A stretch of DNA of 62,038 bases, the filler included, from Coriobacteriales bacterium (GTDB lineage: Bacteria > Actinomycetota > Coriobacteriia > Coriobacteriales > UBA8131), in the NCBI GenBank assembly GCA_031263105.1. It is 6 parts of 6 records of this genome, joined end to end, with 100 filler letters (N's around TTAATTAATTAA, not from the genome) between each part and the next. Parts side by side here need not be neighbours in the genome. Positions count along the whole stretch, not along the records: positions 19,609 to 33,256 come from JAISGJ010000171.1; positions 33,357 to 53,891 come from JAISGJ010000244.1; 4 more parts are not named here. One strand, written 5' to 3'. The notes beneath the pieces are model-generated. The model was not told where the DNA came from, searched no databases, and was given only the letters and a program-made list of their open reading frames with translations. Positions 20,409 to 50,981 of this stretch are shown piece after piece; position 1 is the stretch's first letter, and each line of letters opens with the position of its first letter. Both the position numbers and the translations under genes were made by a program.

Positions 20409-20423
20409 CTGTATTCAGTATAT

Positions 20424-20623
20424 GTTACAGTCCACACCCCCACTGTCATCCCGAGCCCCACTGTCATCCCGAGCCCCACTGTCATCCCGAGCCTGCCGAG
20501 GGATCCTCGGGCGTACAAGCGGTCGACCGCAGGTCGAGGGGCCCCCTGACCTGCCGTTGGACACTGCGTGTCCAAAGATTCCTCGGCGGGGCTCGGAATG
20601 ACAGTGGGGGTGTGGACTGTAAC
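20424..20623. mobile_element. MITE-like palindromic element with 8-bp target-site duplication
   Basis: Terminal inverted repeats GTTACAGTCCACACCCCC / GGGGGTGTGGACTGTAAC flanked by CAGTATAT at 20416-20423 and 20624-20631. Confidence 0.88.
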
Positions 20624-20654
20624 CAGTATATATAATTTTGCATGAAATTCAATC

Positions 20655-20710
20655 TGTAATACTTGACATTACGATTAGACTGAAATAGTATTGTAATACA
20701 AACTATTACG
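20655..20710 (+). promoter_or_regulatory. sigma70-type promoter with two Rrf2-type operator palindromes
   Basis: TTGACA (20663)-17 bp-TAGTAT; TGTAATACTTGACATTACG and TGTAATACAAACTATTACG overlap -35 and +1. Confidence 0.7.
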
Positions 20711-20725
20711 AAAAGAGGTATTCAG

Positions 20726-21307
20726 ATGACCAACGAGTTTTTAGAGCTAATAAAAAGCCGCCGCAGCACAAGGAAGTTCAAACCCGAACAAGTCAATCAA
20801 GATAAGCTGGACGCTATCATCGAAGCCGGGCTGTATGCACCAAGCGGTAACAATGCGCAATCATGGCACTTTACCGTAATACAGAATCAAGAAGTAATCA
20901 GCAAAATGAACCAAGATTTGAAAAAGGCTATCAGGTCTTCCGATAATCTGCCGGAATTCATGCTGTCAAAAATAAAAGCTGCTGCCAGCAATGATGCAAC
21001 GAACCTTTTTTATGGAGCGCCGACACTTATTCTGGTTTCACAACCGGAAGGTGGATTTTTTCCAATGGTTGACGCGGCTCTGGCATCTGAAAACATTATG
21101 CTTGCCGCCCATGCGCTTGAACTGGGTTCGTGTTGGATAGGTTCTGCTGGCTGGCTGTTTAACAGTGCCAAAAGAAATGAGTATTTGGAGATATTGCAGA
21201 TACCACAAGGGTATTTCCCCTCCCATATTATTTCAATCGGTAAAAGAGCCGGTAGTCCGGCGCAGGCAACAGCAAGAAAAGAAAATGCCGTTAATTATAT
21301 TAAGTAG
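20726..21307 (+). CDS. Nitroreductase family protein
   Basis: SRRSTRKF, APSGNNAQSWHF, LAAHALELGSCWIG; low GC. Confidence 0.93.
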   Translation: MTNEFLELIKSRRSTRKFKPEQVNQDKLDAIIEAGLYAPSGNNAQSWHFTVIQNQEVISKMNQDLKKAIRSSDNLPEFMLSKIKAAASNDATNLFYGAPTLILVSQPEGGFFPMVDAALASENIMLAAHALELGSCWIGSAGWLFNSAKRNEYLEILQIPQGYFPSHIISIGKRAGSPAQATARKENAVNYIK

Positions 21308-21326
21308 ACTATAGAAGCGTCTACAA

Positions 21327-21365
21327 GAAAGCCATTACCAGTGGCTTACCAATGGCTTTTCTCTT
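21327..21365 (+). terminator. Probable intrinsic terminator
   Basis: AAAGCCATT...AATGGCTTT hairpin followed by a T-rich tract. Confidence 0.55.
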
Positions 21366-21548
21366 GCGGAACTGGTTGAGTGTATGCCTTATATCAATCA
21401 TTCCGACTATTTCCCCCTTGCGAACGGCAATAAAGGTAGACGACACAACCCATTCAGGATCAGCGGTCTGCTCATTTGAGTTATTGCCTTGACAAACGCT
21501 TCTGAGTGGGATGATGACAGCCCATCAGACAGAGACCGCGAGTTATAG

Positions 21549-21692
21549 CTCGCCAAAAATGCTTCATGATGCTATATTTTGGCGAGGTATCATTGCACAA
21601 ATATTTTATTGACACACAAAATAGCCTGTCCTATACTCAAACTCAAGAAAATAGCTCGCCAAAACCACTATTGAATGCTAGATTTTGGCGAG
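21549..21692 (+). promoter_or_regulatory. sigma70 promoter bracketed by two palindromic operators
   Basis: CTCGCCAAAA-N18-TTTTGGCGAG at 21549-21586 and 21655-21692; TTGACA (21609)-17 bp-TATACT (21632) between them. Confidence 0.8.
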
Positions 21693-21727
21693 TTATCGTA
21701 GTCAAGTCAGAGAGCGCGGTGCATGCA

Positions 21728-23155
21728 ATGAAGATCGTCGGGCGAAAAAGGGAGCAAAGGGCGCTCAGGGAGTACCACGAGTCCGGGTTGCCGGAGTTCT
21801 TGGTGGTTTACGGTCGTCGCCGCGTGGGGAAGACCTTCCTTGTGAGAGAGTATTTCAAGAACGAGTTTACCTTCTACGCCACCGGCCTGGCCAGAAGCAG
21901 CAGGGAAGAGCAGCTGCAGTCCTTCTGTCTGGCGCTGCAAGAGCAGATGGACGGCTCAGAGGCGACGGCCCGCAACTGGCTCGAGGCGTTTGCCGCCTTG
22001 AGGCGCGGACTGGAAGAGATGCCCAAAGGCAGACGCAAGGTCGTCTTCTTGGACGAGCTGCCTTGGATGGACACCCCGAAATCCGGTTTTCTCACGGCCT
22101 TCGAGCACTTTTGGAACGGCTGGGGCGCCGGACGCGAAGACATCTTCCTCATCGTCTGCGGCTCCGCCACCTCCTGGATTGTGAAGAACCTCTTCAAAAA
22201 CAAAGGCGGCCTGCACAACAGGACCACCCGCAGGATGCGCATCGCCCCTTTCGACCTCTGCGAGACGGAGCAGTACCTCACGTACAAAGAGGTCGAGTTC
22301 GACCGCTTCCGCATCATCGAGGCCTACATGGCCTTCGGCGGCGTGCCCTACTACCTGAGTCTGATGGCAAAGGGACGCAGCCTGCCGCAGAACATCGACG
22401 ACCTCTGCTTCGCGGAGGACGCGCCCCTCAAAGGCGAGTTCGCCGAGGTCTACTCGACCCTCTTCAAGAACAGCGACAGCTACATCAGGGTGGTCGAGGC
22501 CCTCAGCACCAAGGCCAGAGGGCTCACTCGCAACGAGATAATCGCCGTCACCGGCCTTGCCTCCGGCGGCGGACTCACCAAGATCCTCGACGAGCTGGAG
22601 TTCTGCGGGTTCATCCGCTCCTTCCCCAGCTTCGCGTTGGACGACAATCTCTGCATGTACCAGCTTGTGGATCCCTTCAGCCTGTTCTACCTGCGCTTCA
22701 TGAAGGCGCGAAGGCCAAAAAACCCGCGTTACTGGTCCAGCAACCTGGACAACCCCAGCCTCAACGCCTGGCGCGGCTATGCCTTCGAGCAGGTCTGCCT
22801 GTCCCATACGGAGCAGATCAAGGAGGCCCTGGGGGTTGCGGCCATCTCGACCGAGATCTCTTCCTGGCGTAGCTCGAAATCGGTGCCCGGCGCACAGATC
22901 GACCTGCTCATCGACCGGCGGGACGGCATCATCAACCTCTGCGAGAGCAAGTACAGCAAAGGCCCCTTCGCCGTCGATGCCGCCTACGAGTCGAACCTGC
23001 TCAACAAGCTGTCGGCCTTCAGGTCCGAGAGCAGGACGAAAAAGGCCGTGCATCTCACGATGGTCACCACCTATGGGGTGACCAAAGGCAGGCACTCCGG
23101 CATCGTCCAAGCCGAGGTGACGATGGACGACCTGTTCACACCTGGCAGACTGTAA
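21728..23155 (+). CDS. AAA ATPase (archaeal-ATPase type) with winged helix and C-terminal PD-(D/E)XK-like domain
   Basis: YGRRRVGKT Walker A, FLDELPW Walker B, IVCGSA, QIDLLIDR...INLCESKY. Confidence 0.88.
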   Translation: MKIVGRKREQRALREYHESGLPEFLVVYGRRRVGKTFLVREYFKNEFTFYATGLARSSREEQLQSFCLALQEQMDGSEATARNWLEAFAALRRGLEEMPKGRRKVVFLDELPWMDTPKSGFLTAFEHFWNGWGAGREDIFLIVCGSATSWIVKNLFKNKGGLHNRTTRRMRIAPFDLCETEQYLTYKEVEFDRFRIIEAYMAFGGVPYYLSLMAKGRSLPQNIDDLCFAEDAPLKGEFAEVYSTLFKNSDSYIRVVEALSTKARGLTRNEIIAVTGLASGGGLTKILDELEFCGFIRSFPSFALDDNLCMYQLVDPFSLFYLRFMKARRPKNPRYWSSNLDNPSLNAWRGYAFEQVCLSHTEQIKEALGVAAISTEISSWRSSKSVPGAQIDLLIDRRDGIINLCESKYSKGPFAVDAAYESNLLNKLSAFRSESRTKKAVHLTMVTTYGVTKGRHSGIVQAEVTMDDLFTPGRL

Positions 23156-23463
23156 CAGTGTGACAAGCGTGACAGGGAGACGGCACTGTGACTGAGGGGA
23201 CGCGCAGCGGCACCAAACTACCCCTGCTCCCCGACGATCTCTCCTGCCTGCGCAGGGAACTTCCGGCAGAGCCACCTCAGGGCCTCCAGCTGGTCGGCAC
23301 CTGTGGCCCTGCGTATCGGGGCTGTGCCAGGGGGACGGTACGTTTTTGTCACGCGTTTTGTCACGCCCTGCTTGCCTTGTGCCCTTAGCCCCTTGTGCTC
23401 GTTTCCGCACTTGCTGTAGAATATGCAGCAGGTCAATCGCTGCAACCGCTGATGGAGGTCGTT

Positions 23464-23727
23464 ATGCCGACTATTGACAAGGTCTCGTCTCTGAGGAACT
23501 ATCAGGCCGTGTTGGGCAAGGTGCGGCCAGGCAATCCGGTCTTTCTCACCAAAAACGGGGCTGGGCGATACGCCATACTCGATACTGCGGAATACGACTT
23601 TCTCTACAAGGCCGCCTTTGACAAGCTCTTTAAGCAGTTGGACTCGGCTCGCACTCAGGCGGACCGCGACGGATGGGTCAGCGAGGAGGCCCTCAGAGAG
23701 CACTTCGGGATAGCAACCGATGCATAG
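23464..23727 (+). CDS. Phd/YefM-family antitoxin
   Basis: MPTIDKVSSLRNY...PVFLTKNG.GRYAILD; GGAGG RBS. Confidence 0.88.
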   Translation: MPTIDKVSSLRNYQAVLGKVRPGNPVFLTKNGAGRYAILDTAEYDFLYKAAFDKLFKQLDSARTQADRDGWVSEEALREHFGIATDA

Positions 23728-24064
23728 ACTCGTATTCTCTTTGGCGGCACAGGCCAAGCTGGGCGATGTTTTTGAATATGTCGCCGATACGCTGCGCGCG
23801 CCCCAAGCAGCCACCTCAACGATCGCAGGCATCGTCGACAGTTTGGGCATTCTTAAGAACAGCCCCGATGCCGGGCCAAGGCTGTCATCGCGCATCAGTC
23901 ATGTGCCTGCCCGTTTTGCCGAGACCCGGTTCTTGGTTTGCGGAAACTTCGTGGCAGCGTACGACCACGGTGACCACGAGGTCAAGATACTCAGAATCTA
24001 CCGTGGCCGAGAGGATGCATTCGGTCGTTTCTTCAGTGAAATCGATCGAGGGGGCGCTGGCTGA
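23720..24064 (+). CDS. RelE/ParE-family toxin
   Basis: SLAAQAKLGDVFEYVA...P.AG...RFLVCGNF...VKILRIYRG; overlaps the antitoxin. Confidence 0.85.
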   Translation: MHRLVFSLAAQAKLGDVFEYVADTLRAPQAATSTIAGIVDSLGILKNSPDAGPRLSSRISHVPARFAETRFLVCGNFVAAYDHGDHEVKILRIYRGREDAFGRFFSEIDRGGAG

Positions 24065-24168
24065 ACAGAGCGCGGATGTCGTTCAGGCAGGGGTTTAACC
24101 ACCCGCCCCTGCGAGAACACCCCTCAGAGGGAGGGGAATTAGGCACCATGCGACCGTAACAGCCATCG

Positions 24169-24310
24169 GTTACTGTTCAGACCTCATTGTCATTCCGAGC
24201 GAAGCCGAGGAATCTTTGGCTGCGGAGCAGCCAACTGACCCTGGTGGGCGCTGATGCGCCCAAAGATTCCTCGGCTGCGCTCGGAATGACAGTAGGGTGT
24301 GAACAGTAAC
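24169..24310. mobile_element. MITE-like palindromic element with 8-bp target-site duplication
   Basis: GTTACTGTTCA...TGAACAGTAAC flanked by AGCCATCG at 24161-24168 and 24311-24318. Confidence 0.88.
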
Positions 24311-24416
24311 AGCCATCGTATCACAAATTATACAGAGTATCTCTTCATTTGTAATAACATACAATAGCCTGTATAATTTGCGATAGCCTTTTGCAGTAAC
24401 CGTTCCTTACGATTGG

Positions 24417-25595
24417 ATGCCCATGGACAGCCGAACCAACCCTTACTCTCCCGGTGCCGGGCGGATACCCGTGTCGCTGGTCGGCCGCGACGAGCAGATC
24501 GACGAGTGGATGGCGTCCTTGCAGCGCATCGAGGACGGCCTAGACTCCCGGCCGATGGCCCTGTACGGGCTTCGCGGCGCAGGCAAGACCGTGCTGCTCA
24601 TGAAGCTGAACGACTTGGCCCTGCACAACGATTGGATCACGGCGTTCGTCGAGGCGACAAGCGGAAAATCCCTCAGGGAGCAGCTGAGCAGCGCCTTCGA
24701 GAGCAGACTCTACGACATCGCCAAACCCAGTGCGGGACAGAAGGTTCTCAACGCTTTGAAGACCGCGCTCTCGTTCTCGGCCACAGTCAGCGAGGCCCCC
24801 GCCCTCACCTTCGGCATCGACCTTTCCAAGGCAAGCGGATCCAACGCCTCCACCGGCAGCTTCTCGGGCGACCTGGAGCGCTATGTGCGAGATCTGTCCG
24901 ATGCCAGCGGCGAGTTGGGCGCGGGCGTTGCCATCCTCATCGACGAGGCGCAGGATCTGTCGGGTGGGGACATGGCGGCCTTGGTCGGTTTGGCACAAGC
25001 CGTTGCGGTGCGCAGGATGCGGGTGGCCATCGCCTTGACGGGGCTGCCGACGTTACCACGCCTGCTGGCGGAGGCGAAAAGCTATGCGGAAAGGCTGTTC
25101 GCCTATCAAGAGATCGGCAACCTGGGCACCCCCGAGGCGCTCGAGGCCCTCCTCGGGCCCGCGCAGTCGCGAGGCGTCAGCTGGACGGATGCCGCAGCTG
25201 CCAGGGTCGTGCGGGCCGCCGACGGCTATCCCTATTTTCTCCAAGAGTACGGCTCGGCCTGCTGGCTGCAAGCCGACGAGCCGCCGATCGGCGTATCGGA
25301 CGTGCGCAAGGCCGAGGGACTTGCCGGCCAGAGGCTGGATGCCGGCTTCTTCCGTTCCCGCTGGGAAAGGGCCACCGAGGCGGAGAAGCGCTATCTGCAG
25401 GCGATGGCCGAGGACGAGGATGGGCCAAGCCGCACGGCCGAGCTGGCCGCCAGGCTGAGGAGCAGCCAGTCCTCGCTCAGCTCGCTGCGCTCGCGCCTTA
25501 TCCAGAAAGGAATGATCTACGCTCCGGAAGCCGGGGCGGTCACCTTCACCGTCCCCCTCTTCGCCCGCTTCATAAAGCGCCAGGTCGTCCAATAA
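24417..25595 (+). CDS. AAA-family ATP-binding protein with C-terminal winged helix
   Basis: NPYSPGAG, YGLRGAGKT, ILIDEAQ, GYPYFLQ, RSRLIQKGMIY. Confidence 0.87.
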   Translation: MPMDSRTNPYSPGAGRIPVSLVGRDEQIDEWMASLQRIEDGLDSRPMALYGLRGAGKTVLLMKLNDLALHNDWITAFVEATSGKSLREQLSSAFESRLYDIAKPSAGQKVLNALKTALSFSATVSEAPALTFGIDLSKASGSNASTGSFSGDLERYVRDLSDASGELGAGVAILIDEAQDLSGGDMAALVGLAQAVAVRRMRVAIALTGLPTLPRLLAEAKSYAERLFAYQEIGNLGTPEALEALLGPAQSRGVSWTDAAAARVVRAADGYPYFLQEYGSACWLQADEPPIGVSDVRKAEGLAGQRLDAGFFRSRWERATEAEKRYLQAMAEDEDGPSRTAELAARLRSSQSSLSSLRSRLIQKGMIYAPEAGAVTFTVPLFARFIKRQVVQ

Positions 25596-25769
25596 CGAGC
25601 AGGCGGACGGAGTGCGACAAGGGGACGAGGGCGGCTCCAGAAACTTTGGAAGGTTGAGAGTTATCCTATGGAGAAGCAGGCTGTGCAGGTTCCAGACAGA
25701 GCATGGGCAACAACTCTGACAAAGACGGAGCTTGGGGGCAAGGCGCAACGTGGCGACACTCCGCCCCTG

Positions 25770-27194
25770 TCAACTCGGATTCGCAAAAAGGTCGTCGAGG
25801 GTTATCACCGATTGGATATCGTTGGCATAGGCATTGTGACCCAAGCCATACGTTGTGATCATGGTTTGATGCACGGCGCTGCGCGTGCCCGTCTCCTCGA
25901 TGAAGCGTTGGCGGCGAGCAGCGAGATGGGCAGCGTAAGCGGAATCGATGGCGAACTCGGACATCCTGTATTTTATCTCGCAGAGGTTGACTACCCTGTC
26001 GTTGCGGTCGAGGACCAGATCGATTTGCAGCGGCGAGGACCTGTCGGTCGAGCGCCAGGAGTAGGTGTTGGTGATAACGCCAGCGATGCCCAGCTTGGCC
26101 TTGATCTGCGCCGTGTGTGCCAGGCAAAGCCGCTCGAAAGCGTGGCCGCACCAGTTGTGATGCGCGGGGTCGAGCAGGTAGTTGGTCCAGAAGTGTTCGT
26201 CCTGTGATCGCTTGCCGGCGATGTATCTGAGGTGGAACTGGCTGAAGAAGTCCGCCAAACGGTAATATTCGCCATTGCGCCGCTTGTTGTAGTCGTCGGT
26301 GGCGGCGATCAGGCCGCACTGCTCCAACTCGCGCAGGATGTCGCTGAGCGCCCCGCCGTCAGCGATGCCGCTGGCTGCGACAATCTGCTGCCTACTGAGG
26401 CCGGAAGCGTTGGCGCCGAGTGCCTCAACAACACGCAGATGGTTTGCAGCTGAACGAAACAGTGAGGCATAGAGTCGCCTGAACTCGCCTTTGAGCTTGG
26501 CGCTTTGAGCGAAAAACAATGCGTCGATGTTCTGGTTAAGCCCAAAGGACTTGTCAACCTGCTCCAAGTAATACGGTATGCCACCGAGTATCATATAGGC
26601 CTCGGCGACTTGGCGGCGGTTGAATACCACTCCCCGGCTGCGAAAGAACTCCTCGCATTCGGCCAACGTGAACGGTTGCAGCTGAATTTGATGGGTGATG
26701 CGGTTGTGCAGCCCACCATAGCTGTCAATAAGGTTATTGATCATCCATGAGGCCGCGCTCCCACAGACGATAAGCAGGATGTCCGGTCGTGAGGAAGCAA
26801 AGCTGTTCCAGAAGTGCTCCAAAGCGGGCAGGAAGCGCGAGCGGCGCGTGTCGAACCAAGGCAACTCGTCAATAAATACAACCTTCTTCTCAGTCGTGGG
26901 CAGCGATTCGAGCAGTCGCTCGAGGTGCATGAAGGCCGCCAGCCAATTCTTGGGTACCGGGATGTCGCCTGTGAAGTGCTTCTGCAGCGCCGCATGAAAG
27001 ATAGCCATCTGCTCAGCCATCGGTGCGTCGGATTCGGCGCTGACATAGAAAGCAAAGCGGTTGTCGAAATGCTCTTTGACCAGGAAGGTCTTGCCTACGC
27101 GCCGCCGCCCATACACTGCCACAAACGCGGGACGGTCTGCCTGCGCACAGCTTCGTAGTATTTGGCGCTCATGGCGCCTACCGATGATTTCCAT
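25770..27194 (-). CDS. AAA ATPase with C-terminal PD-(D/E)XK-like domain (paralog of 21728-23155)
   Basis: YGRRRVGKT, FIDELPW, GGLHNR, QIDLVLDR...VNLCEIKY. Confidence 0.88.
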   Translation of the reverse strand: MEIIGRRHERQILRSCAQADRPAFVAVYGRRRVGKTFLVKEHFDNRFAFYVSAESDAPMAEQMAIFHAALQKHFTGDIPVPKNWLAAFMHLERLLESLPTTEKKVVFIDELPWFDTRRSRFLPALEHFWNSFASSRPDILLIVCGSAASWMINNLIDSYGGLHNRITHQIQLQPFTLAECEEFFRSRGVVFNRRQVAEAYMILGGIPYYLEQVDKSFGLNQNIDALFFAQSAKLKGEFRRLYASLFRSAANHLRVVEALGANASGLSRQQIVAASGIADGGALSDILRELEQCGLIAATDDYNKRRNGEYYRLADFFSQFHLRYIAGKRSQDEHFWTNYLLDPAHHNWCGHAFERLCLAHTAQIKAKLGIAGVITNTYSWRSTDRSSPLQIDLVLDRNDRVVNLCEIKYRMSEFAIDSAYAAHLAARRQRFIEETGTRSAVHQTMITTYGLGHNAYANDIQSVITLDDLFANPS

Positions 27195-29129: not shown

Positions 29130-29162
29130 ACGTCCTCTGCTTTCCCGTTCCCGTTTAGGCCC

Positions 29163-38946: not shown

Positions 38947-39223
38947 GTGTTCACACCTCCACTGTCATCCCGAGCCCCACTGTCATCTACCCGAGCCCCA
39001 CTGTCATCCCGAGCCCCACTGTCATCTACCCGAGCCCCACTGTCATCCCGAGCCCCACTGTCATCCCGAGCCCCACTGTCATCCCGAGCTTGCCGAGGGA
39101 TCCTCGACCGCGCAAACGGTCGACTGCGGCCAGTTGGACACTGCGGGTCCAAGGGTTCCTCGGCTGCGGCGCTGCCCCTGGCAGCGTCTCCACTCGGAAT
39201 GACAGTGGGGTGTGAACAGTAAC
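38947..39223. repeat. TGTCAT-family element with tandem left-arm amplification
   Basis: 7 tandem CCCCACTGTCATC(TA)CCCGAG units; right end GGGGTGTGAACAGTAAC. Confidence 0.9.
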
Positions 39224-39237: not shown

Positions 39238-40902
39238 ATGAATCGTTGGTATCCAGAAGCCGACCTCGTGATCAGGCATCCCAAGATCTATACCGTTGCC
39301 CTCACGTGCGAGGAGGTGAAGCAGGGCAGGCGGGACTTCCCGATCATCGAGGACGGTGGGGTCGCGTCAAAGGACGGACGGATCATAGCCGTGGGCAAGG
39401 CTCTGGAGATGGAGCCGCTCATCGGGCAGCACACCCAAGTGATCGATGCTCCCGGCAAAATGCTGCTCCCCGGCTTTGTCGAAAGCCACATGCACTGCAC
39501 GTGGACCGGAAACAACCTGCGCAACATCGACTTCCGCCCCGTCGTCAGCCGCGAGGAGGTCAAGCGCCTCATCAAGGAGCACGCCGACAGGGCCCCGGAC
39601 GGGGAGTGGGTGGTGGGCAACAGCTGGAACGAGCTGGTCTGGGACGACCCGGAGCCGCTCACCCTGGCAGAGCTCGACGAGATCTGCCCGAGCAACCCGC
39701 TGTTCTGCATGCGGACCTGCTTCCATACCGCGATGGTCAATTCCGTGGCGCTTGCGTGTGCGGGCATAACCCGTGACACGCCCGACCCCGAGGGCGGCAG
39801 CATCGGGCACGAGCCCGACGGCGGTCTCGACGGCTATCTGTTCGAGAACTCCGCCATGAGCCTGGTCCAGCGCATCATCGCCCCGCTGAGTGCCGAGCAG
39901 CGCATCGAGAGCGTGGAGGCGGTGGGCGCATACCTGAACTCCCTCGGCATCACCAGCGCCATCGATGCGAACCTGTCGTTCGACGAGATGCGCACCTATC
40001 TTGAGGCGAAGAAGCAGGGGCGCCTCTCCTATCGCGCCAACCTGATGTTCTATCTGGACTCCGCATACGGAGACATGGAGACCCACCTGCGCCGCCTCGA
40101 GGAGATGGACTGCGTGACCGGCTTCGGCGACGAGATGCTGAAGCTCAACGGCGTCAAGGTCACGCTCGATGGCATCCCGGCCACCTATACCGCGCTCATG
40201 CGGGAAGGCTACAAGACCCGTCCCGACTATCTTGGATGCAGCGTATGGACCCAGGAGGAGATCACCCGCTTCGTCTGCAAGGCGCAGGAACTGGGCTGGC
40301 AGTTCGGCATACACGCCATCGGCGACGCCGCAGAGGACATGGCTCTCAACGCCTTTGAGGAGGCCGACAAGATAAGCCCCGTTTGGGACCGTCGCCACTA
40401 CCTTATCCACTACCAGTTCCCCCGCGACGACCAGTGGGAACGCATGAGGCGGCTCAACGTGGGCGTCACTGTGCAGCCCACGCTGGTCTCCACGATGGGC
40501 GAGGCCCCTCAGTTCTATGAGGAGCAGGCCGAGCGCATCCAGTCGCCGGGGCTGATGTTCAAGAACGGGATCATCTGCGGCGGCGGCTCCGATAGCCCCG
40601 TCGTCCCTCCCGATCCGGTGATGGGGATGTATTACGCCATCACGCGCCTCGACGAGACGACCGGAAACACTTTGTCCCGAGGCGACGAGTCGAAGGTGAG
40701 CCCGCTTGAGGCTTTGATCATGTGGACCAAGAACGCCGCGTTCTTCCTGCACGACGACGACAGACTGGGATCCATCGAAGTGGGGAACCTGGCCGACTTT
40801 GCCCTGTTCCCCAGCGACTTCATATCCGACGACGTAGAGGCGTATCGCACGGCGAAGGTTGAGAAGACGATCCTGGGCGGCACGGTCGTCTACGAGGCCT
40901 GA
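39238..40902 (+). CDS. Amidohydrolase family 3 (YtcJ-like) metallohydrolase
   Basis: LPGFVESHMH, GVKVTLDG, IHAIGD, GSDSPV, GSIEVGNLADF. Confidence 0.9.
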   Translation: MNRWYPEADLVIRHPKIYTVALTCEEVKQGRRDFPIIEDGGVASKDGRIIAVGKALEMEPLIGQHTQVIDAPGKMLLPGFVESHMHCTWTGNNLRNIDFRPVVSREEVKRLIKEHADRAPDGEWVVGNSWNELVWDDPEPLTLAELDEICPSNPLFCMRTCFHTAMVNSVALACAGITRDTPDPEGGSIGHEPDGGLDGYLFENSAMSLVQRIIAPLSAEQRIESVEAVGAYLNSLGITSAIDANLSFDEMRTYLEAKKQGRLSYRANLMFYLDSAYGDMETHLRRLEEMDCVTGFGDEMLKLNGVKVTLDGIPATYTALMREGYKTRPDYLGCSVWTQEEITRFVCKAQELGWQFGIHAIGDAAEDMALNAFEEADKISPVWDRRHYLIHYQFPRDDQWERMRRLNVGVTVQPTLVSTMGEAPQFYEEQAERIQSPGLMFKNGIICGGGSDSPVVPPDPVMGMYYAITRLDETTGNTLSRGDESKVSPLEALIMWTKNAAFFLHDDDRLGSIEVGNLADFALFPSDFISDDVEAYRTAKVEKTILGGTVVYEA

Positions 40903-40990: not shown

Positions 40991-41326
40991 GTTACCGTTC
41001 GCACCCCGCTGTCATCCCGAGCCTGCCGAGGGATCCTTGGGTTCGAGCGCCCGGAAAACACATCGCGTTTTCAGCGAGAACGGCGCGACAGTCCAGCGGG
41101 CTGTCGCGGGGCGAAGCTGCGTTGGGAAACAGCACAGTGTGCTGTTTCCGGGCGAAGCTGCGAAGCAGCGGGTGAGCCCCTGAGCGGGTGAACCCATGGA
41201 ACCGACAGGCCCACGGAACGCAAAGCAGCCGACCGCAGGCCGAGGCGCATCCGCCTACAGTCGACCGCTTGCGCGGCCGAAGATCCCGCGGCTGGTTCGG
41301 GATGACAGCGGGGTGCGAACGGTGAT
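40991..41326. repeat. Long composite TGTCAT-family element
   Basis: GTTACCGTTCGCACCCCGCTGTCATCCCGA ... TCGGGATGACAGCGGGGTGCGAACGGTGAT. Confidence 0.88.
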
Positions 41327-41349
41327 TTTTTTTGAGGAGTTTGTGACAC

Positions 41350-42540
41350 ATGAACGCAAGAAAGGCATGGGCCGTCGCACTGGCGACCATTTTCGCCGGC
41401 GTCGCGCTGGCCCTGGTCCAAAACAAGGTGGCCCCCTGCATGACGACCCTGATGGAGGCCTTCGACATCGACATGGCACAGGCGGGCTGGCTGAGCTCGC
41501 TGTTCTCCCTCGTCGGCATCGTCATGGCCATCCCGGCCTCCCTTGTCCTGAACAGGCTGGGACCCAAGAAAAGCGGCATCGGGGCCCTGGCGTGCGCGTT
41601 GGCGGGCTCGCTCATCGGTGTCTTCACCGAGAGCGCGGCGGTTCTCGCGGTGAGCCGCGTCATCGAGGGCGTCGGTGTCGGCCTTATCGCCGTCATCGGG
41701 CCCGCGCTTATCGCGATGTGGTTCCCCGAGGCAAAGCGCGGGCTCCCCATGAGCATCTGGGGCGCCTATCAGATGGGGGCCCAGGCGGCCATGTTCTTTC
41801 TCGGAGCCGTGCTTACGACGAGTTTTGGCTGGCAGGGCATGTGGTGGTTCGCCTTTGCCGTGAGCCTGGTCGCCCTGGTCTTCTATGTCCTCTGCGTCAG
41901 GAGCCCTCGCCCTGAGGACAGTCACGCCGATGTGGAGAACAGCGGCGTCTCGTTGGCCGAAGGCCTGAAGTCGAGGTCTGCATGGCTGCTCTCGCTGGTC
42001 ACGATGCTGTTCAGCCTCGGATGCTTCGGCTTCGTGAACTGGATCGCCACGTGTTGGACGGAGACCTTCGGCTGGAGCGAGGGCGAGGCCAACATGTGGG
42101 TAGGGTATTTCTCCATAGGAGGGGTCATCGCCGCCGTCATCATCGGGGCCTTGCTCAACAAAGTGAGGAATCGCAGGCGCTTCGGCATGGTCGCCCTTGT
42201 CGCCTATGGCATCATATCGCTTGTCGGCATGATGATGCCGGACCCGCTGCTCATCGTCGCCTTCGTCGTGGTCTATGCGTTCGCCGACGCCGGCTTCCCC
42301 TGTGTCCTGTGGACGATGACGGCCCAGAGCGTCGAGAGGCCCGAGTTCGTCGGCATCGCATTGGGCATCGTCTGCATCGGCTTCAATCTGGGGGTCCTGC
42401 TGGGCCCTCCGATCATCGGTGGTGTCGTGGAGGCCTTCGGCTGGAACGTCGGGGCCGCAGCGATCTGCGGCGTCTGCCTCCTTGCGACCGTGGCCCTGCG
42501 CTTCGTCAAGATATACCACGCCGACGAACCCGCCGCATGA
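41350..42540 (+). CDS. MFS transporter (paralog of 37684-38907)
   Basis: About 12 TM helices, SRVIEGVG, AMWFPEAKRGLPMSIW. Confidence 0.92.
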   Translation: MNARKAWAVALATIFAGVALALVQNKVAPCMTTLMEAFDIDMAQAGWLSSLFSLVGIVMAIPASLVLNRLGPKKSGIGALACALAGSLIGVFTESAAVLAVSRVIEGVGVGLIAVIGPALIAMWFPEAKRGLPMSIWGAYQMGAQAAMFFLGAVLTTSFGWQGMWWFAFAVSLVALVFYVLCVRSPRPEDSHADVENSGVSLAEGLKSRSAWLLSLVTMLFSLGCFGFVNWIATCWTETFGWSEGEANMWVGYFSIGGVIAAVIIGALLNKVRNRRRFGMVALVAYGIISLVGMMMPDPLLIVAFVVVYAFADAGFPCVLWTMTAQSVERPEFVGIALGIVCIGFNLGVLLGPPIIGGVVEAFGWNVGAAAICGVCLLATVALRFVKIYHADEPAA

Positions 42541-42576
42541 CCTGCGGGACGGGGGTGAGCGGGAGCGCCCCCGGGT

Positions 42577-42858
42577 GTTACTGTACACACCCCACTGTCA
42601 TTCCGAGTCCTTCGGCTGCGCTCAGGATAAACTCCGCCGAGGAATCTTCGGCTGCGAAGCAGCCGACTGCGGGCAGACGCGTCCCCCCCGGCCGCAGTTG
42701 GGCGCTGACGTGTTCCGTGGGCCTGTCGCGCCGTCCTCGCTGAAAACGCGGTGCGTTTTCCGGGCGCTCGGACCCAAGGATTCCTCGACGGAGTTTATCC
42801 TGAGCGCAGAGAAGGACCTTCGCTGCGCTCGAAACGACAGTGGGGTGTGTACAGTAAC
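42577..42858. mobile_element. MITE-like composite element
   Basis: GTTACTGTACACACCCC / GGGGTGTGTACAGTAAC ends; CCCCGGGT at 42569-42576 and 42860-42867 (1-nt offset). Confidence 0.8.
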
Positions 42859-42898
42859 ACCCCGGGTCGGCGGCTATCGTTCGGCCATCTGGCGGGAG

Positions 42899-44692
<1,794 letters not shown>

Positions 44693-44853: not shown

Positions 44854-45124
44854 GGGAACGTTACTGGGAACGTTACTGGGAACGTTACTGTTCTCACCCC
44901 ACTGTCATCCCGAGCCTGTCGAGGGATCCTCGGCCGCGCAAGCGGTCGACCGCAGGCCGAAGGACCCACTGACCTGCCGTTGGACACTGCGTGTCCAAAG
45001 ATTCCTCGGCGGAGCTCGGAATGACAGTGGTGCGAACAGTAACACACGCCCACTGTCATTCCGAGCGCAGCGAAGCGGAGCCGAGGAATCTTCGGTTGCG
45101 AAGCAGTGGGGTGTGAGCTGTAAC
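44854..45124. repeat. Tandem GGGAACGTTACT x3 plus two TGTCAT-family elements
   Basis: Elements at 44884-45043 and 45044-45124, ending GGGGTGTGAGCTGTAAC. Confidence 0.85.
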
Positions 45125-45147
45125 TAGGCAGGAGCAGGGGGTATTCG

Positions 45148-46554
45148 TTGGCCGACGCGCATATGGGCATGACACAGGAGCCGCAGGTGCGGCTGCGCCT
45201 CTCGGTGGAGGCACGGCAGGGGATCGGCCTGCTTGCGCTCTCCGTCCTTGAGCTCAACGAGCATATCGCCAACAGCCTTGAGGAGAACGTGTTCTTAGAA
45301 CACGACGAGCGTGACCTGCGCAGGCATCCTCTTGACCCCGATGCCATCGAGATGAACGTCAGGACCGAGAGCCTGCTCGCCCGCATGCAGAGAAGCAATG
45401 TCGGCATCGCGGGAGGGAGCTACGGGGAGATACGCCGCGAGTTCCCCTTCGAGAAGTACATGACCGAACAGCAGACGCTCGAGGCGCATCTGGGCGGGCT
45501 GCTTGCGCAGGAGCTGCGCAACGGCCTGGACAGGACGATAGGGGAGTACCTCATCGGGAACATCGATGCGGCAGGCTATCTGCGCATCGGACTCGATGAG
45601 GTGGCGGCGCAGTTCGAGGTCTCAGGCGGACGTGTCGAGCAGGTGCTTCATGCCCTACAGGCCTGTGCGCCTGCGGGGATCGGGGCGCGCAGCGTCGAGG
45701 AGTGCCTGCTTCTGCAGCTTGAGGCCGCAGGGCAGGCGGATGCCACGACGCGCCGCATCGTTCAGGAACATCTGCAGGATCTCGCCGCTGGTCACGTCGC
45801 GCAGGTGGCGGCGAGGCTCGGGGTCGGGCCCGGGGACGTCCAACGGGCCTTCGACCTGATCCGCGCCTGCGACCCGCATCCGGGACTGCAGTTCTCCGAC
45901 GGGCACCGTCAGGCGCTCTGCCCCGAGGCCTTTGTCGAGCGCGACGGAGCGGCCTGGGTCGTGCGCATGCAGGACTTCGACCTGCCGCAGCTCAGGCTCA
46001 GCGAGGAATACCTCAAGATGATCGACGACCCGCACATCGACCCCCAGGCCGCGCACTATCTTGCGCGACAGCTGCGTGCCGCCCAAGGGCTGATGACGGG
46101 CATCGAGCAACGCAAATCGACCATCTTTCAGGTCGCGGCCTGTATCGTCGCGCGACAGCAGGAGTTCTTCGACAAGGGGATCGAGCACCTCCAGCCCCTG
46201 ACCATGGCCCAGGTGGCCGATCAGGCAGGGGTCTCGGAATCGACCGTCAGCCGTGTGGTCAACGGGAAGTACATCCAGACGCCTCATGGCACTTTGGAAA
46301 TGCGCTCGTTCTTCCACTCGGGGGTCGGCTCGACAGGGCGCGGCCCGACGGCGAGCGAGGACGTCTCGTCCCAGGCGGTCAAGCACCGCATCCAGACCCT
46401 GATAGCCGAGGAGGACCCGACGCACCCTTTGAGCGACCAGGCGCTACAGGACGCCCTCGCCGCCTGCGGTATCGAACTCTCCCGTCGCACGGTCAACAAG
46501 TATCGCAAAAGCCTGAACATCCCCTCCCGCGCCCAGCGCAGACGCGGCGGCTAG
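45148..46554 (+). CDS. rpoN: RNA polymerase sigma-54 factor
   Basis: Region I (LL.LS..EL...I...LEENVFLE), PAGIGARSVEECLLLQL, HTH GVSESTVSRVVNGKY, RpoN box SRRTVNKYR; start may be 45163 or 45170. Confidence 0.95.
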   Translation: MADAHMGMTQEPQVRLRLSVEARQGIGLLALSVLELNEHIANSLEENVFLEHDERDLRRHPLDPDAIEMNVRTESLLARMQRSNVGIAGGSYGEIRREFPFEKYMTEQQTLEAHLGGLLAQELRNGLDRTIGEYLIGNIDAAGYLRIGLDEVAAQFEVSGGRVEQVLHALQACAPAGIGARSVEECLLLQLEAAGQADATTRRIVQEHLQDLAAGHVAQVAARLGVGPGDVQRAFDLIRACDPHPGLQFSDGHRQALCPEAFVERDGAAWVVRMQDFDLPQLRLSEEYLKMIDDPHIDPQAAHYLARQLRAAQGLMTGIEQRKSTIFQVAACIVARQQEFFDKGIEHLQPLTMAQVADQAGVSESTVSRVVNGKYIQTPHGTLEMRSFFHSGVGSTGRGPTASEDVSSQAVKHRIQTLIAEEDPTHPLSDQALQDALAACGIELSRRTVNKYRKSLNIPSRAQRRRGG

Positions 46555-46780
46555 GTTACACGTCACACCCCACTCATTCCGGCCCCCACTGTAATCCCGG
46601 CCCCCACTGTAATCCCGAGCCCCACTGTAATCCCGAGCCCCACTGTCATTCCGAGCCTGTCGAGGAATCCTCGGCCGCGCAAGCGGCCGACCGCAGGTCG
46701 AAGGGCCCCCTGGCCTGCCGTTGGACACTGCGTGTCCAAGGATTCCTCGGCGGAGCTCGGAATGACAGTGGGGGTGTGAC
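46555..46780. repeat. TGTCAT-family element with tandem arm units
   Basis: GTTACACGTCACACCCC left end immediately after the rpoN stop; right arm GCTCGGAATGACAGTGGGGGTGTGACG. Confidence 0.88.
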
Positions 46781-46796
46781 GGCTGGCCCTGAACGC

Positions 46797-47045
46797 CAAA
46801 GCGGCCCTGCTGTCGCCTGATGAGGGAGGTAGAAGGCGAGAGAAGGGCCGCTCTGTTTTGCCGAGTCAGTCAGAAAGGGGAATACGACAAGGCATGGGGA
46901 AGGAGGTTCAGGAGTCGGGACGGAATGCAGGAAAGAAAGGATACGGGATGAATCACAAGGAGGAAGAACCAACCCAAGGGGACACGCTGCATTCCGACCC
47001 GACTTCAGTGAAAGGAGCAAAGAACCACGTTCCTTCCCACCAAGG
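46797..47045. ncRNA. Candidate structured non-coding RNA
   Basis: Nested stems 46897-46909/47022-47038 and 46911-46930/46987-47006, hairpin 46800-46852, strong purine/pyrimidine strand asymmetry; strand unresolved. Confidence 0.45.
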
Positions 47046-47167
47046 ACAATCTTACGCGCCCATTATCCGCTTGTGGTCAGGCAGATGTCAGGGACTTGTA
47101 AAAACCTGCGTCCTGCCTTCCTCCAGAACCACCGCTCTCTTTGTCCGACCTCCGCCCCGCCCCGGGC

Positions 47168-48514
47168 TCAGTAGCGCAGCAGGTTGAAGCCCATGCAGCG
47201 CAGGGTGTTGGGGTCGAGATAGAGGATAAAGCGCTCGCCGCTGGGGAGGTCGTAGATATAGAGCAGGAAGTCGGCCGTTGCGAACGGCACGGGGGTCAGC
47301 GCCGTGTATTCGACTTCGGGGAGCTCCTCGGCCTCCGCAGGCTGGAGGGGAAGCAGCGCCGTGTAGGGATAGCCGTAGCGGTGCTCGTAGGTCAGCTCCA
47401 GTTGTCTGAAGGCCAGGAACAGCTCAGGCTGGTCGAAGACCTTTGCCTCGCGCGCGGTCGCGTAGGAGAAGGACCAGAGATGTGCGTCCTCGGTCACCGG
47501 CGGATGGTCGAGGGCCGACTGGACGTCTCGTGCAACCAAGGTCGCCAGTGTGGCGAGCGCCCCACCGGATGCGCCGCCGTCCCGTCCAGAGCTGCCTGCC
47601 TCCTCTCCGTTTGCGGGCACGGCGTCCGTGCCTTGCCCTTCGGTGCCGGTCTGGGCGGCATCCCCTGTCTCCGTGTCGCCCTGCCCGGGGTCGCGTGTCT
47701 CGCCATCCGCGCCCGCGCCGTCCGTCCCGCTCCCGTCGGCCGTGCCGGCCCCGGCCCCTGCGTCCTCCGTGCCTCCGGTGCCCTCGCCCCCCTCGGCACC
47801 CCCGGTACCCCCGGTGCCCTCGCCCCCCTCGGTATCCTCAACAGGCTCATGCTCCTGCTCCTTCTCCGCAGGCGGGGCAGCGGCGACCCCTATCGGTTTC
47901 TCGACCGAGACGGAGTCCCATTGCGAGGAGACGAGGAGCAGGGAGATGAGGTTGCCCTCAAGGTCGGTCGCACAACGGATGTCCGCCCGCCCGTCAAGGT
48001 CGATGTCTGCGTCGACGAGCACATAACAGCCGGGTTCGGCGGTGTCGCGCGGCTCAAGGTACTGGAACAGGCCGAGGATCTGTGCGCGATAGGCCTCGTC
48101 GCTGGGCACGGCCCCGTCCTCGTCCGGCTCCGGCTGCATGCCGTGGTCGCGCAGGGTCGCGATGAGGAAGTCCGGGATCCCCCTCCTTTCGAGGACGTTG
48201 CGGTCCGCAGGCGAGAGGGGCGCGAGCAGCTCCTCCTCATAGAGGTTCCAAGGATACAGGGTCACCGGCTCCTCGAAGACATGTTGCGAGATCTCGTTCT
48301 CCGGTGGCGCGACGAGCTGGATCACCTCGTCGCGGTACAGGTCGAGATAGGGAAACAGCAGGGTCGGTAGCAGAAAGCCCGCCGCGATGATGACGCCGGC
48401 GACCAACAGGGTCATCAGGTTGCTGGTGAGGTTGTAGCGCCGTTGGCTGGGGCTTTTCGCAGCCACCTGTGCCCCCTCCGCCTGCGTGCCCCGCGTCTGC
48501 TCCTGCTCAGGCAT
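47168..48514 (-). CDS. Hypothetical membrane-anchored protein with G/T/E-rich linker
   Basis: Single N-terminal TM helix; coupled to the upstream kinase; GC-rich codon pattern. Confidence 0.75.
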   Translation of the reverse strand: MPEQEQTRGTQAEGAQVAAKSPSQRRYNLTSNLMTLLVAGVIIAAGFLLPTLLFPYLDLYRDEVIQLVAPPENEISQHVFEEPVTLYPWNLYEEELLAPLSPADRNVLERRGIPDFLIATLRDHGMQPEPDEDGAVPSDEAYRAQILGLFQYLEPRDTAEPGCYVLVDADIDLDGRADIRCATDLEGNLISLLLVSSQWDSVSVEKPIGVAAAPPAEKEQEHEPVEDTEGGEGTGGTGGAEGGEGTGGTEDAGAGAGTADGSGTDGAGADGETRDPGQGDTETGDAAQTGTEGQGTDAVPANGEEAGSSGRDGGASGGALATLATLVARDVQSALDHPPVTEDAHLWSFSYATAREAKVFDQPELFLAFRQLELTYEHRYGYPYTALLPLQPAEAEELPEVEYTALTPVPFATADFLLYIYDLPSGERFILYLDPNTLRCMGFNLLRY

Positions 48515-49937
48515 GGGCGCTCGCCGCCTGCAGGGCGATGCTCACGCGGGTGCCCTCGCCGGGTGCGCTGTCGATGCGCAGCTCCGTCCCGTGTGCACGC
48601 GCTATCTCCGAACAGAGGGCAAGACCGAGCCCTGCACCGCCATGCTTGCGGGTGCGTGCCTTGTCGAGCATGTAGAACGGCTCGGTGAGCAGGGGAATCT
48701 GCTCCTTGGGTATCCCCACGCCCTCGTCTGCGACCGTGACTGTGACCGTGTCCGCCTGCGCGTCGATGCGCAGGCGGATGGTGCTTCGCGGCCCTGATGC
48801 CTTGATGCTGTTGTCGACGAGGTTGAAGATGAGGGACTTGAGGAGCTCGTGGTCGACGGCCATCCAGACGTCCTCGGCGGGCAGCGTGTAGACGAGGTCG
48901 ATGCCCTGGTTCTTGAGGATGGGCTGCAAGGTGGTGGCCAGTTCCGTGACGAGGGCGTGGGCCTCGACGGCCTCGGTGCTTATCTGCATGCTCCCCACGG
49001 TGATCAGCTCCATCAGCTTCCCGGAGAGCCCTTGGAGCCGCTTGGTCTCGCTGACGATGACGTTCGCGTACTCGATGCGGTCGTCGTCGCTGACGTCGCG
49101 CTTGACGCGCAGGATGTCGGCGAAGCCGAGGATGGAGGTCAGCGGCGTGCGCATCTCGTGGGCGAGGTTGCCGATGAACATGCGGCGCGACTCGGCAAGC
49201 TGTTCCAGCTCGGTGATGTTGTGCTCGATCGAGTCCGCCATCGTGTTGAGATCGCGCGCGACCTCGGAAAGCTCGTCGTGCCCCTGCACGGTGGCGCGTT
49301 TGTCGAGGTCACCGCTCGCTATGCGGTGAGTGGTGCCGCTCAGGTTGCGCAGCGGCAGCAGCAGGCCCCTCACCAGCAGCAGGAGCAGCCCGGCGACGAT
49401 GAGCGCCGAGATGGTGCCGACGAAGCGCACTTGGCTGAAGTCTGCACGGAACAGGTCGTAGGTCGAGCTGACGTCGAAGGAGCTGAGGAGACGGAAGCTC
49501 CGCTCGCCCAAGGTGAGCGTCGAGACGAGCAGGAGCCTGGTCTGCTCGCCGTCCTCGGCGATCGAGGAAGCGTAGTCCGCCTCGCCAAGAAGCGCGGCAC
49601 TGCCTGCGGGCGTGCCCCGGCCTGCGGGGTACACGACCGTCTCCCCATCGAAGAGCGCAACCTCAAGGGCCTCGTCGCTGCCTTGGCGCTCAAGGACCTC
49701 CACGACGACGGCCATGGTCGCCTCGTCGGACAGCGAGATGATGCGCTCCACGAGCTGCGTGTAGATGAGGGTGTTCTGGATCTCGGTTATGAGGTAGCTG
49801 TGCCGCGCGAGCGCGTTCTGCTGCTCGCGCTCGATGGCGAGGCGGTGGTTGCTGGTGAGGAGGGCGAGCGAGGTCACGTTGACCACGATGATGACGAGGG
49901 CGAGCGCAAGCAGGAAGATCTTCTGCCAGAGCTTCAC
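48507..49937 (-). CDS. HAMP-domain sensor histidine kinase
   Basis: Two TM helices, HAMP, AHEMRTPL, NLVDNSIK, DEGVG, GAGLGL. Confidence 0.94.
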   Translation of the reverse strand: MKLWQKIFLLALALVIIVVNVTSLALLTSNHRLAIEREQQNALARHSYLITEIQNTLIYTQLVERIISLSDEATMAVVVEVLERQGSDEALEVALFDGETVVYPAGRGTPAGSAALLGEADYASSIAEDGEQTRLLLVSTLTLGERSFRLLSSFDVSSTYDLFRADFSQVRFVGTISALIVAGLLLLLVRGLLLPLRNLSGTTHRIASGDLDKRATVQGHDELSEVARDLNTMADSIEHNITELEQLAESRRMFIGNLAHEMRTPLTSILGFADILRVKRDVSDDDRIEYANVIVSETKRLQGLSGKLMELITVGSMQISTEAVEAHALVTELATTLQPILKNQGIDLVYTLPAEDVWMAVDHELLKSLIFNLVDNSIKASGPRSTIRLRIDAQADTVTVTVADEGVGIPKEQIPLLTEPFYMLDKARTRKHGGAGLGLALCSEIARAHGTELRIDSAPGEGTRVSIALQAASAHA

Positions 49938-49989
49938 GGCTCACACGTCCCTGCAGCCGGTTGTGTGCGTATGCAGGCATGAGGGTGTC

Positions 49990-50700
49990 TCACGAGTCCC
50001 CCGGGTTCTCGCAGGAGGGTTTCTGGCTTTCGAGCCGATAGCCGAGGCGCGGGATGGTGAGAAGGGAGTCATGGAGCCCGAGCTTCTTGCGCAGCTGCTG
50101 CACATGGGTATCGACCGTGCGCGTCTCCCCGCCGAAGCTGTAGCCCCAGACGGCGGAGAGCAGCCGCTCGCGCGTGAGGGCGATATCGACGTTGCGGATG
50201 AAGAACACGAGCAGGTCGAACTCTTTGGGCGTGAGTATGACGGCATCACCGTCGAGGGTGACCTCGTGCTTGTCCACCTCGACGGTGATGCCCTGGTAGC
50301 TCAAGGCGACCGTTCCATGGTGCGTGCGTCTGAGCGCGACCTCGATCCGCGCAAGCAGCTCGACCGCCTCGAAGGGCTTGACGATGTAGTCCTCCGCCCC
50401 CATCCGCAGGCCCTTGACCTTGCTCGGCACGTCGTCCATCGCGGTGAGGAAGATGACGGGCGTGGGGTTCTCCCCCTTGCCTTCGAAGACCTGGAAGCCG
50501 TCGAGTTTGGGGAGCATGACGTCGAGGAGGACAAGGTCGTAGTCCCCGCTCGATATCTCGGCAAGGGCGCTTTGCCCGTCGCCGCAGACGCTGCTCGTAT
50601 AGCCGCCTATGCTCAGCGTCGCCTCTATCATATGGGCGATGTTCTCGTCGTCCTCCACAATGAGGACATGCGGCTGTGTATGCGTATGTGGCTGCGGCAC
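49990..50700 (-). CDS. OmpR-family response regulator
   Basis: VLIVEDD, LDVMLP, DYIVKPF, RTVDTHV, GYRLE; GTG start after GAAGGGAG. Confidence 0.93.
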   Translation of the reverse strand: MPQPHTHTQPHVLIVEDDENIAHMIEATLSIGGYTSSVCGDGQSALAEISSGDYDLVLLDVMLPKLDGFQVFEGKGENPTPVIFLTAMDDVPSKVKGLRMGAEDYIVKPFEAVELLARIEVALRRTHHGTVALSYQGITVEVDKHEVTLDGDAVILTPKEFDLLVFFIRNVDIALTRERLLSAVWGYSFGGETRTVDTHVQQLRKKLGLHDSLLTIPRLGYRLESQKPSCENPGDS

Positions 50701-50796
50701 CAGAGGGCTCCCTTCATGGATGTCTCCATTGTAACCCAGCGCATGGCAAAAGCGCGTCGCGCCCTTGACAGTGGGGTGTGAACTGGAGCTCACAGA

Positions 50797-50958
50797 GTTG
50801 CTGTTCACGCCTCCACTGTCATTCTGAGCGGAGCGCCCGCAAGGGCGCGCAGCGTGAGAATCCTCGGGCACGCAGTGCCCGACTGGCCCGGTTGGGCGCT
50901 GGTGCGTCCAAAGATTCCTCGGCTTCGCTCGGAATGACAGTGGGGTGTGAACAGTATC
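50797..50958. mobile_element. MITE-like palindromic element with 8-bp target-site duplication
   Basis: GTTGCTGTTCACGCC...GGGGTGTGAACAGTATC flanked by CTCACAGA at 50789-50796 and 50959-50966. Confidence 0.85.
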
Positions 50959-50981
50959 CTCACAGAGAAGCCGAGAAGCTG

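Follow-up and report, generated by a model that had tools for sequence, protein, structure and literature searches.

A palindromic MITE family with 8-bp target-site duplications in a termite-gut Coriobacteriales genome and its probable IS66-family mobiliser

What moves the GC-rich palindromes that recur in the genome of a Coriobacteriales bacterium (assembly GCA_031263105.1)? They were noticed in a stretch of 62,038 nucleotides, referred to here as the window, which is made of six contigs (C81, C82, C83, C85, C88 and C90) joined by N runs. The original prediction regarded them as repetitive extragenic palindromic (REP) hairpins travelling inside the ends of a MITE (miniature inverted-repeat transposable element), a hybrid served in trans by a DDE transposase. 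The source is a metagenome-assembled genome (MAG; completeness 86%, contamination 6.5%) of 250 contigs, 2.9 Mb and 64.5% GC, the shortest contig being 2502 bp, and the public runs that hold the window stretch are all labelled termite gut metagenome, with no others among them. From sequence comparison, the palindromes are a genuine MITE family, and the enzyme that moves them in trans is most likely an IS66-family (ISBst12-like) DDE transposase, because the tips of the MITE also end IS66-transposase elements that make 8-bp duplications.

Terminal repeats and 8-bp duplications

Four complete copies lie in the window; copies are listed without strand here and below.

20424..20623, complete copy of 200 bp, GTTACAGTCCACACCCC...GGGGTGTGGACTGTAAC, with the 8-bp duplication CAGTATAT at 20416-20423 and 20624-20631
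24169..24310, complete copy of 142 bp, with the duplication AGCCATCG at 24161-24168 and 24311-24318
42577..42858, complete copy of 282 bp with extra internal hairpin modules, with CCCCGGGT at 42569-42576 and 42860-42867
50797..50958, complete copy of 162 bp, with the duplication CTCACAGA at 50789-50796 and 50959-50966

On re-reading, the sequences and coordinates of the three exact, mutually different duplications agree with the original prediction, and so does the 1-nt offset at the fourth copy (42577-42858), where the right CCCCGGGT is set off from the tip by one extra base (A, 42859). The absence of a transposase from the window is likewise upheld. As single-stranded DNA the four copies fold with -58 to -109 kcal/mol; the one at 20424-20623 forms one long hairpin (DNA fold -72.1 kcal/mol) and carries three times at its left, in 20437-20490, an 18-nt subterminal unit, CCCCACTGTCATCCCGAGC. 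Just upstream of the copy at 50797-50958 is a lone right tip of another copy (50773-50789). The tip pattern is matched 21 times in the window with up to 3 mismatches, against 0.44 matches expected from shuffles and a shuffle maximum of 3.

The terminal inverted repeats are 17 bp long, GTTACTGTTCACACCCC. With up to 2 mismatches, the tip GTTAC....CACACCCC and its complement have 284 and 312 matches in the 2.9-Mb genome, and 12 and 11 in 1 Mb of shuffled sequence. With at most 3 mismatches allowed per tip and a spacing of no more than 1000 bp, the assembly yields 153 left-right tip pairs, and the flanking 8-mers are identical in 56 of them. Under stricter limits (up to 2 mismatches per tip and at least 30 nt of flank) 133 pairs remain; the 8-mers are identical in 53, differ by one mismatch in 17 and by two in 11, so that 60% of the pairs are without an exact duplication. 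In each of eight controls with a shifted register, at most 1 of 133 pairs matched exactly (0 or 1), shuffled partners gave none in 200 rounds, and none of the 133 pairs matches in the 7-bp or 9-bp register. The 53 duplicated 8-mers are all distinct, with a GC content of 0.60 and no evident target consensus. The flanking repeats, once scored over the genomic tip pairs with usable flanks, thus match above chance and at exactly 8 bp, and the palindromes behave as predicted, as a non-autonomous MITE family with true target-site duplications. A stop-free frame of at least 300 aa spans 9 of 48 reconstructed empty sites, as against 1261 of 2000 random sites, a comparison that is only roughly informative at 65% GC.

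The same tips on full-length IS66-type elements

When public genomes were scanned for the exact tip pattern, one genome per species, it was found in at least 106 stretches, mostly of gut Bacillota, with a few Coriobacteriaceae and Eggerthellaceae MAGs. In the loci retrieved, about 24 short tip pairs, 75-640 bp long, are flanked by exact 8-bp duplications. What lies between their tips is unrelated; MAGs of Lachnospiraceae and Christensenellaceae, for example, have AT-rich interiors, and those of Coriobacteriaceae other GC-rich ones.

The tip, at a length of 13-17 nt (GTTACTGTTCACA(CCCC)), also terminates insertion sequences of 2.2-2.4 kb in gut Firmicutes. It stands at two loci beside a large open reading frame (ORF) with the motif GRKPGGQPGHKG; the 571-aa ORF of locus L067 matches Pfam DDE_Tnp_IS66 (E value 4.4e-10) and DUF6444, and its protein was used as the query against five tip-bearing genomes. 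A 2271-bp contig of Oribacterium sp. NK2B42 (L111) starts with GTTACTGTTCACAGGTG, ends with GGGGTGTGAACAGTAAC and encodes a 547-558-aa protein. Its left tip abuts four different flanks in contig-end fragments (L116, L117, L119 and L120), and one Oribacterium copy is split between two contigs (L073 and L118), each of its ends lying next to ATGGAGAG, an 8-bp duplication. Perfect 17-bp tips bound a 2217-bp element on a Faecalicatena contig (L113). Two further elements have exact 8-bp duplications, with GCCGGAAT on both sides of L121 (2358 bp) and CACATAAC on both sides of L129 (2201 bp). The tips on L111, L121, L125, L129, L113 and L140 read GTTACT(G/A)TTCA(C/G)A. A transposase homologue (E value 1e-30 or better) is present in 16 of the 301 genomes of the family concerned; at least one tip (up to 2 mismatches in 13 nt) was found at 13 of the 18 loci examined and both tips at 8, the tipless loci being those of more distant homologues.

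The full-length elements, 2.2-2.4 kb long, have one large ORF for a transposase of 536-558 aa and a small upstream ORF of 89-120 aa. Four of the transposases (L111, L121, L129 and L113) were scored against PF03050 (DDE_Tnp_IS66), and all pass with 38.5-90.5 bits at a cut-off of 23.1, L125 and L140 having been assigned by homology; matches to the NCBIfam model transpos_IS66 have E values of 5e-42 to 2e-32. No Pfam family scores above its cut-off in the three small upstream ORFs scanned, and hence no TnpB_IS66 is found there. The transposase clade comprises 2529 proteins at E values of 1e-20 or better among the scored candidates, many of them on contigs of 2-3 kb; a named close relative is annotated merely as 'IS66 family transposase', with no ISfinder name attached. 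In one MAG, UBA10550, a full-length copy and MITEs occur together.

An experimentally active relative is ISDge4 of Deinococcus geothermalis, in the ISBst12 group of the IS66 family, whose transposition has been observed and which is described with a single 449-aa transposase, GTGACTACTCAGCA and GTAACTGCTCAGCA as its tips and a direct repeat of 8 bp (PMC12898284). Two IS66-family elements captured in Paracoccus are also reported with 8-bp direct repeats (PMC3281130). The right tip of ISDge4, GTAACTGCTCAGCA, matches the MITE tip GTTACTGTTCACAC at 9 of 14 positions, the common form being GT.ACTG.TCA. The ISBst12 group resembles the elements described here in its 8-bp direct repeats and one large DDE transposase; unlike its members, the MITE copies are non-coding derivatives of 100-540 bp, and their full-length relatives are in gut Firmicutes, not in the Coriobacteriales MAG, with proteins under the NCBIfam IS66 cut-off.

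An IS66-family DDE transposase, supplied in trans, would bind both 17-bp tips and insert the element at cuts staggered by 8 bp, and repair of the gaps would produce the 8-bp duplication. A DDE transposase acting in trans, as originally predicted, is accordingly retained as the best explanation, and among the four families then named it is IS66 that carries the same tips.

Two further loci show variation at and around the tip. On the minus strand of L011, from a Peptococcaceae MAG of termite gut, TGTCATTC stands right after the 17-bp tip as it does in the Coriobacteriales MAG, although the MITE body is different. A short part of the TGTCAT motif may therefore belong to an extended end, so that termite-gut lineages may have a functional end of more than 17 bp. 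In a Christensenellaceae MAG (L080:2389-3252), several copies of one MITE of about 200 bp, bounded by these same tips, are arranged head to tail or nested and have a common flank, ATCCGTTT, which suggests repeated insertion at or beside one site.

The hairpin body and the HUH genes

Are the hairpins a REP population of their own? Adjacent left-right tip pairs are separated by 700 bp or less in 138 of 148 cases (104-692 bp), with a mode of 162-164 bp, and the copies, found in both orientations, are non-coding and near-perfect long palindromes. Inwards from each end come the 17-bp tip, ACTGTCAT(T/C)CCGAGC and CCGAGGAATC, with small hairpins at the centre; longer copies have additional hairpin modules or 2-10 tandem 18-nt subterminal units. 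Tandem amplification of the unit CCCCACTGTCATCCCGAGC is also seen on contigs C176, C8, C117 and C73, with up to 10 copies, and a tip sub-family, GTTACACGTCACACCCC, exists in the genome. The TGTCAT/CCGAGC hairpins are a lineage-specific, modular body that varies by optional hairpin inserts and tandem growth of the 18-nt unit.

Within 150 nt of an outward-facing tip lie 862 of the 1270 matches to the TGTCAT sub-motif. Of the hairpin bodies that do not lie at contig ends (280), the tip core flanks 177 on both sides and 81 on a single side; 22 have none, and many of these 22 keep, as judged by eye, a truncated tip (TGTTCACACCCC). As the TGTCAT hairpins nearly always lie within tips, they are the body of the MITE itself rather than an independent REP population. 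It is the tips, not the hairpins, that are the conserved unit, because the same tips enclose unrelated, often AT-rich interiors in other genomes.

The genome has four Y1_Tnp genes, none of them on the window contigs. Against the model of the REP-associated tyrosine transposase (RAYT), NF047646, the four Y1 proteins score 31-65 bits, and none reaches the cut-off of 80. The IS200/IS605 model NF033573 (cut-off 55 bits) is passed by the two shorter ones, of 138 and 152 aa, with 135-136 bits, and their genes are nested in MITE copies.

L001:1067-2042 (contig C168), intact IS200/IS605-type tnpA inside a tip-bounded MITE
L002:1334-2204 (contig C197), intact IS200/IS605-type tnpA inside a tip-bounded MITE

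Both composites have the order tip, ACTGTCATTGCCAT, hairpin, tnpA, second hairpin ending in TTACT, CCGAGC, remaining MITE and other tip. The subterminal hairpins of the IS200-type part are CCACAGGC...GCCTGTGG and CCCCCGGC...GCCGGGGG, and subtraction of this part leaves a whole MITE. Neither composite has an 8-bp duplication, and the IS200 ends occur in only two copies in the assembly. The simplest reading would be that an IS200-type element was inserted into the MITE body twice, in two MITE variants, and the nesting may reflect a target preference of the HUH element for the TGTCATT motif of the MITE. For the other two Y1 proteins (250 aa, L003:1111-1863, contig C191; 286 aa, L004:1366-2226, contig C165) RAYT is the best model, with 65 and 57 bits. 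No tip or sub-motif lies within 2.5 kb of the gene on C191, and one MITE lies about 1.5 kb from that on C165; the repeats flank neither of the two genes.

The MITE and the REP/REPIN-RAYT system are alike in their GC-rich imperfect intergenic palindromes and in the Y1 HUH genes of the same genome, while the MITE differs in its exact 8-bp duplication and 17-bp DDE-type terminal inverted repeats, in the lack of any protein over the RAYT cut-off and in that its repeats do not flank the RAYT-like genes. The 'hybrid REP-MITE' of the original prediction is not upheld so far as the hairpins as a separate REP system are concerned; what survives of it is that two IS200-type HUH elements sit within MITE copies at TGTCATT.

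Strain differences, rival readings and the whereabouts of the transposase

By BLAST, the family amounts to 571 intervals and 108,323 bp, 3.7% of the assembly, and it is present at 176 of the 500 contig ends. In the window it makes up 18 intervals and 3427 bp, and 7 internal contig ends fall within MITE copies. Besides the four complete copies, the window contains the following.

40991..41326, 336-bp copy whose right tip is degenerate (GGTGAT for GTAAC), without exact duplication
44884..45124, 160-bp copy (44884-45043) without duplication, then a partial copy that has another right tip at its end (45108-45124)
46555..46787, member of the GTTACACGTCACACCCC tip sub-family, right end degenerate
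38948..39223, copy with truncated left tip (start TGTTCACACC) and intact right tip at 39207-39223
3751..3920, copy with left tip at 3764-3780, right side tipless
6078..6268, degenerate copy
19277..19508, left portion of a copy, truncated where contig C82 ends
1..135, incomplete copy at the start of C81
33072..33256, incomplete copy at the end of C83
33357..33525, incomplete copy at the start of C85
53828..53891, incomplete copy at the end of C85
53992..54264, incomplete copies at the start of C88 (53992-54020 and 54047-54264), right tip at 54248-54264
58214..58400, two left tips (58214 and 58271) and MITE body, truncated where contig C88 ends

The start of contig C83 (19609-22000) is a low-GC patch, at 0.44-0.52 against 0.65 for the genome, which may be foreign DNA; it is here that the GC-rich copy at 20424-20623 has inserted. 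Long G or C runs and degenerate GGGGTG repeats stand beside MITE tips near contig ends (L001:2085-2215 and several others, for example on contigs C51, C160 and C196) and are probably assembly artefacts at repeats.

Two public runs allow strains to be compared. Run X1, probably the source sample, matches 0.96 of the sampled words, and run X2 matches 0.25 and holds a relative with about 3-5% differing letters. A 2873-nt contig from X2 is colinear with window positions 40171-40902, 41335-42533 and 42880-43730, with spacers of only 78 nt and 10 nt between the aligned pieces; the copies at 40991-41326 and 42577-42858 are therefore missing from this contig of the divergent strain. From the alignment coordinates alone, the contig is shorter by about 354 nt at the former and about 336 nt at the latter. 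The joints of run contigs are mostly MITE-to-MITE chimeras and were disregarded. The tip with the TGTCAT pattern was found in none of 40 relatives in the same family or order, which hence provide no orthologous empty sites.

In the genome itself, Pfam domains for ISL3, IS66 (PF03050), IS6/IS240, IS256 and IS1595 are all missing, and the MAG has no homologue of the L113 protein at E values up to 1. A search for an autonomous copy, as tip pairs 450-8000 bp apart with up to 1 flank mismatch, gave only non-coding copies, of 541 bp and 557 bp. No partner lies within 900 nt for 104 tips; the four least MITE-like inner sequences beside such tips were translated and resemble, by inspection and with no family search, an AAA-type ATPase, a radical-SAM protein, a membrane protease and a glycosyltransferase, none being transposase-like. 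The transposase bounded by MITE tips that the original prediction proposed to seek was thus not found in this 86%-complete MAG. In the same class, the sole homologue locus (L139, GC 0.70) is without a matching tip.

Several of these results weigh against an IS66-family mobiliser. The link consists of 13-17 nt of tip identity and the length of the duplication; neither PF03050 nor the L113 protein reveals an IS66-family transposase in the MAG; a homologue of the transposase clade is found in only 1 of 401 genomes of the class; the MITE end is in none of the 40 relatives; and the transposase is also missing from 4 of 5 other MITE-rich MAGs. Moreover, 4 of 6 assessable full-length elements lack an exact duplication, the NCBIfam IS66 scores of 112-144 bits lie under the curated cut-off of 180, and canonical IS66 tips typically start with GTAA, those of the MITE with GTTAC.

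Would another enzyme explain the copies better? That they are REP/REPIN-like elements moved by the genome's own tyrosine HUH transposase, a RAYT or an IS200-type TnpA, is suggested by the four Y1_Tnp genes, two of which lie within tip-bounded elements joined at TGTCATT, by the 250- and 286-aa proteins with RAYT as their best match, and by the REP-like GC-rich palindromic bodies. Single-strand transposition by HUH enzymes is not known to leave a target duplication, however, whereas that of the MITE is exactly 8 bp. All four proteins fall short of the RAYT cut-off, and neither tip nor sub-motif lies near the RAYT-like gene on C191. The nested genes pass the IS200/IS605 model, bring hairpins of their own and leave a whole MITE as remainder; neither composite has the duplication, and the assembly holds the IS200 ends just twice. 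Mobilisation by an HUH enzyme is accordingly very improbable. It is hardly more probable that another DDE family (IS1595, IS256, ISL3 or IS6) moves the MITE. The 8-bp duplication is not exclusive to IS66, and the ends of the IS6 family, with a CTGTT core, are presumably loosely like the MITE tip. The Pfam domains for ISL3, IS6 (IS240), IS256 and IS1595 are nevertheless all missing from the genome, and wherever a full-length element with these tips was found, its protein belongs to the IS66 family, which speaks against IS1595, IS256 and ISL3, three of the families first named.

A fossil family is a more serious, if still rather unlikely, alternative: an IS66-type transposase would have entered from gut Firmicutes and since been lost, the copies being immobile now. 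The transposase is not found in the MAG and its clade is nearly missing from the class (1/401), 60% of the tip pairs are without an exact duplication, and the copies have diverged: of 138 copies, 113 have a near-full-length partner, with a nearest-neighbour identity of median 90.7% and maximum 98.1%, and no two of these are identical. On the other hand, 53 perfect duplications persist, the presence of copies varies between strains only about 5% apart, and a repeat-flanked insertion sequence of 2.2-2.4 kb is expected to drop out of a MAG whose shortest contig is 2502 bp. As no such enzyme was found in this incomplete MAG, and as its clade is all but missing from the class, the IS66-family mobiliser favoured here may be an unassembled or unbinned 2.2-2.4-kb insertion sequence, or may have been lost, the copies then being left over from an earlier invasion out of gut Firmicutes. 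Tips, duplications, copy number and the difference between strains are observed directly, as is the agreement of the tips with those on transposase elements that make 8-bp duplications; that such a transposase moved the copies, and where it resides, we infer.

Bacterial MITEs such as Correia/NEMIS, RUP, Nezha and MITEAba12 are, like this family, short and non-coding, with terminal inverted repeats, a duplication of fixed length, many copies that are mostly outside long reading frames, and mobilisation in trans. The present family is of this ordinary kind, a modest addition to the catalogue rather than a new principle, and differs from the others in its IS66 parent family and in its very high load. 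New are that parent family, the rejection of the REP/RAYT reading, two copies absent in a related strain and the nested IS200 elements. Literature searches on IS66 or ISBst12 with MITE found no description of an IS66- or ISBst12-derived MITE, which is an absence from searches and not proof, and the word IS66 does not occur in the available text of a MITE review (PMC10969869) or of a large MITE survey (PMC11602168).

A bolder picture, offered tentatively and on present signs doubtful, is that the 17-bp IS66-type tip serves as a portable mobility tag on unrelated palindromic bodies in at least two phyla, and that it has here captured a REP-like module whose TGTCATT is the specific landing site of an IS200-type HUH element, which would ride inside the DDE-mobilised MITE. 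If that were true, two transposition chemistries would be nested in one repeat family, a weaker but real 'hybrid'. Apart from this, the tips GTTACTGTTCACACCCC with an 8-bp duplication provide an annotation signature for a family that interrupts the assembly at about one third of contig ends, and a likely enzyme family can now be named for a repeat that accounts for 3.7% of the genome of a Coriobacteriales bacterium from termite gut. The 17-bp tip common to MITEs of gut Bacillota and Actinomycetota points to the cross-phylum spread of one clade of IS66-type transposases.

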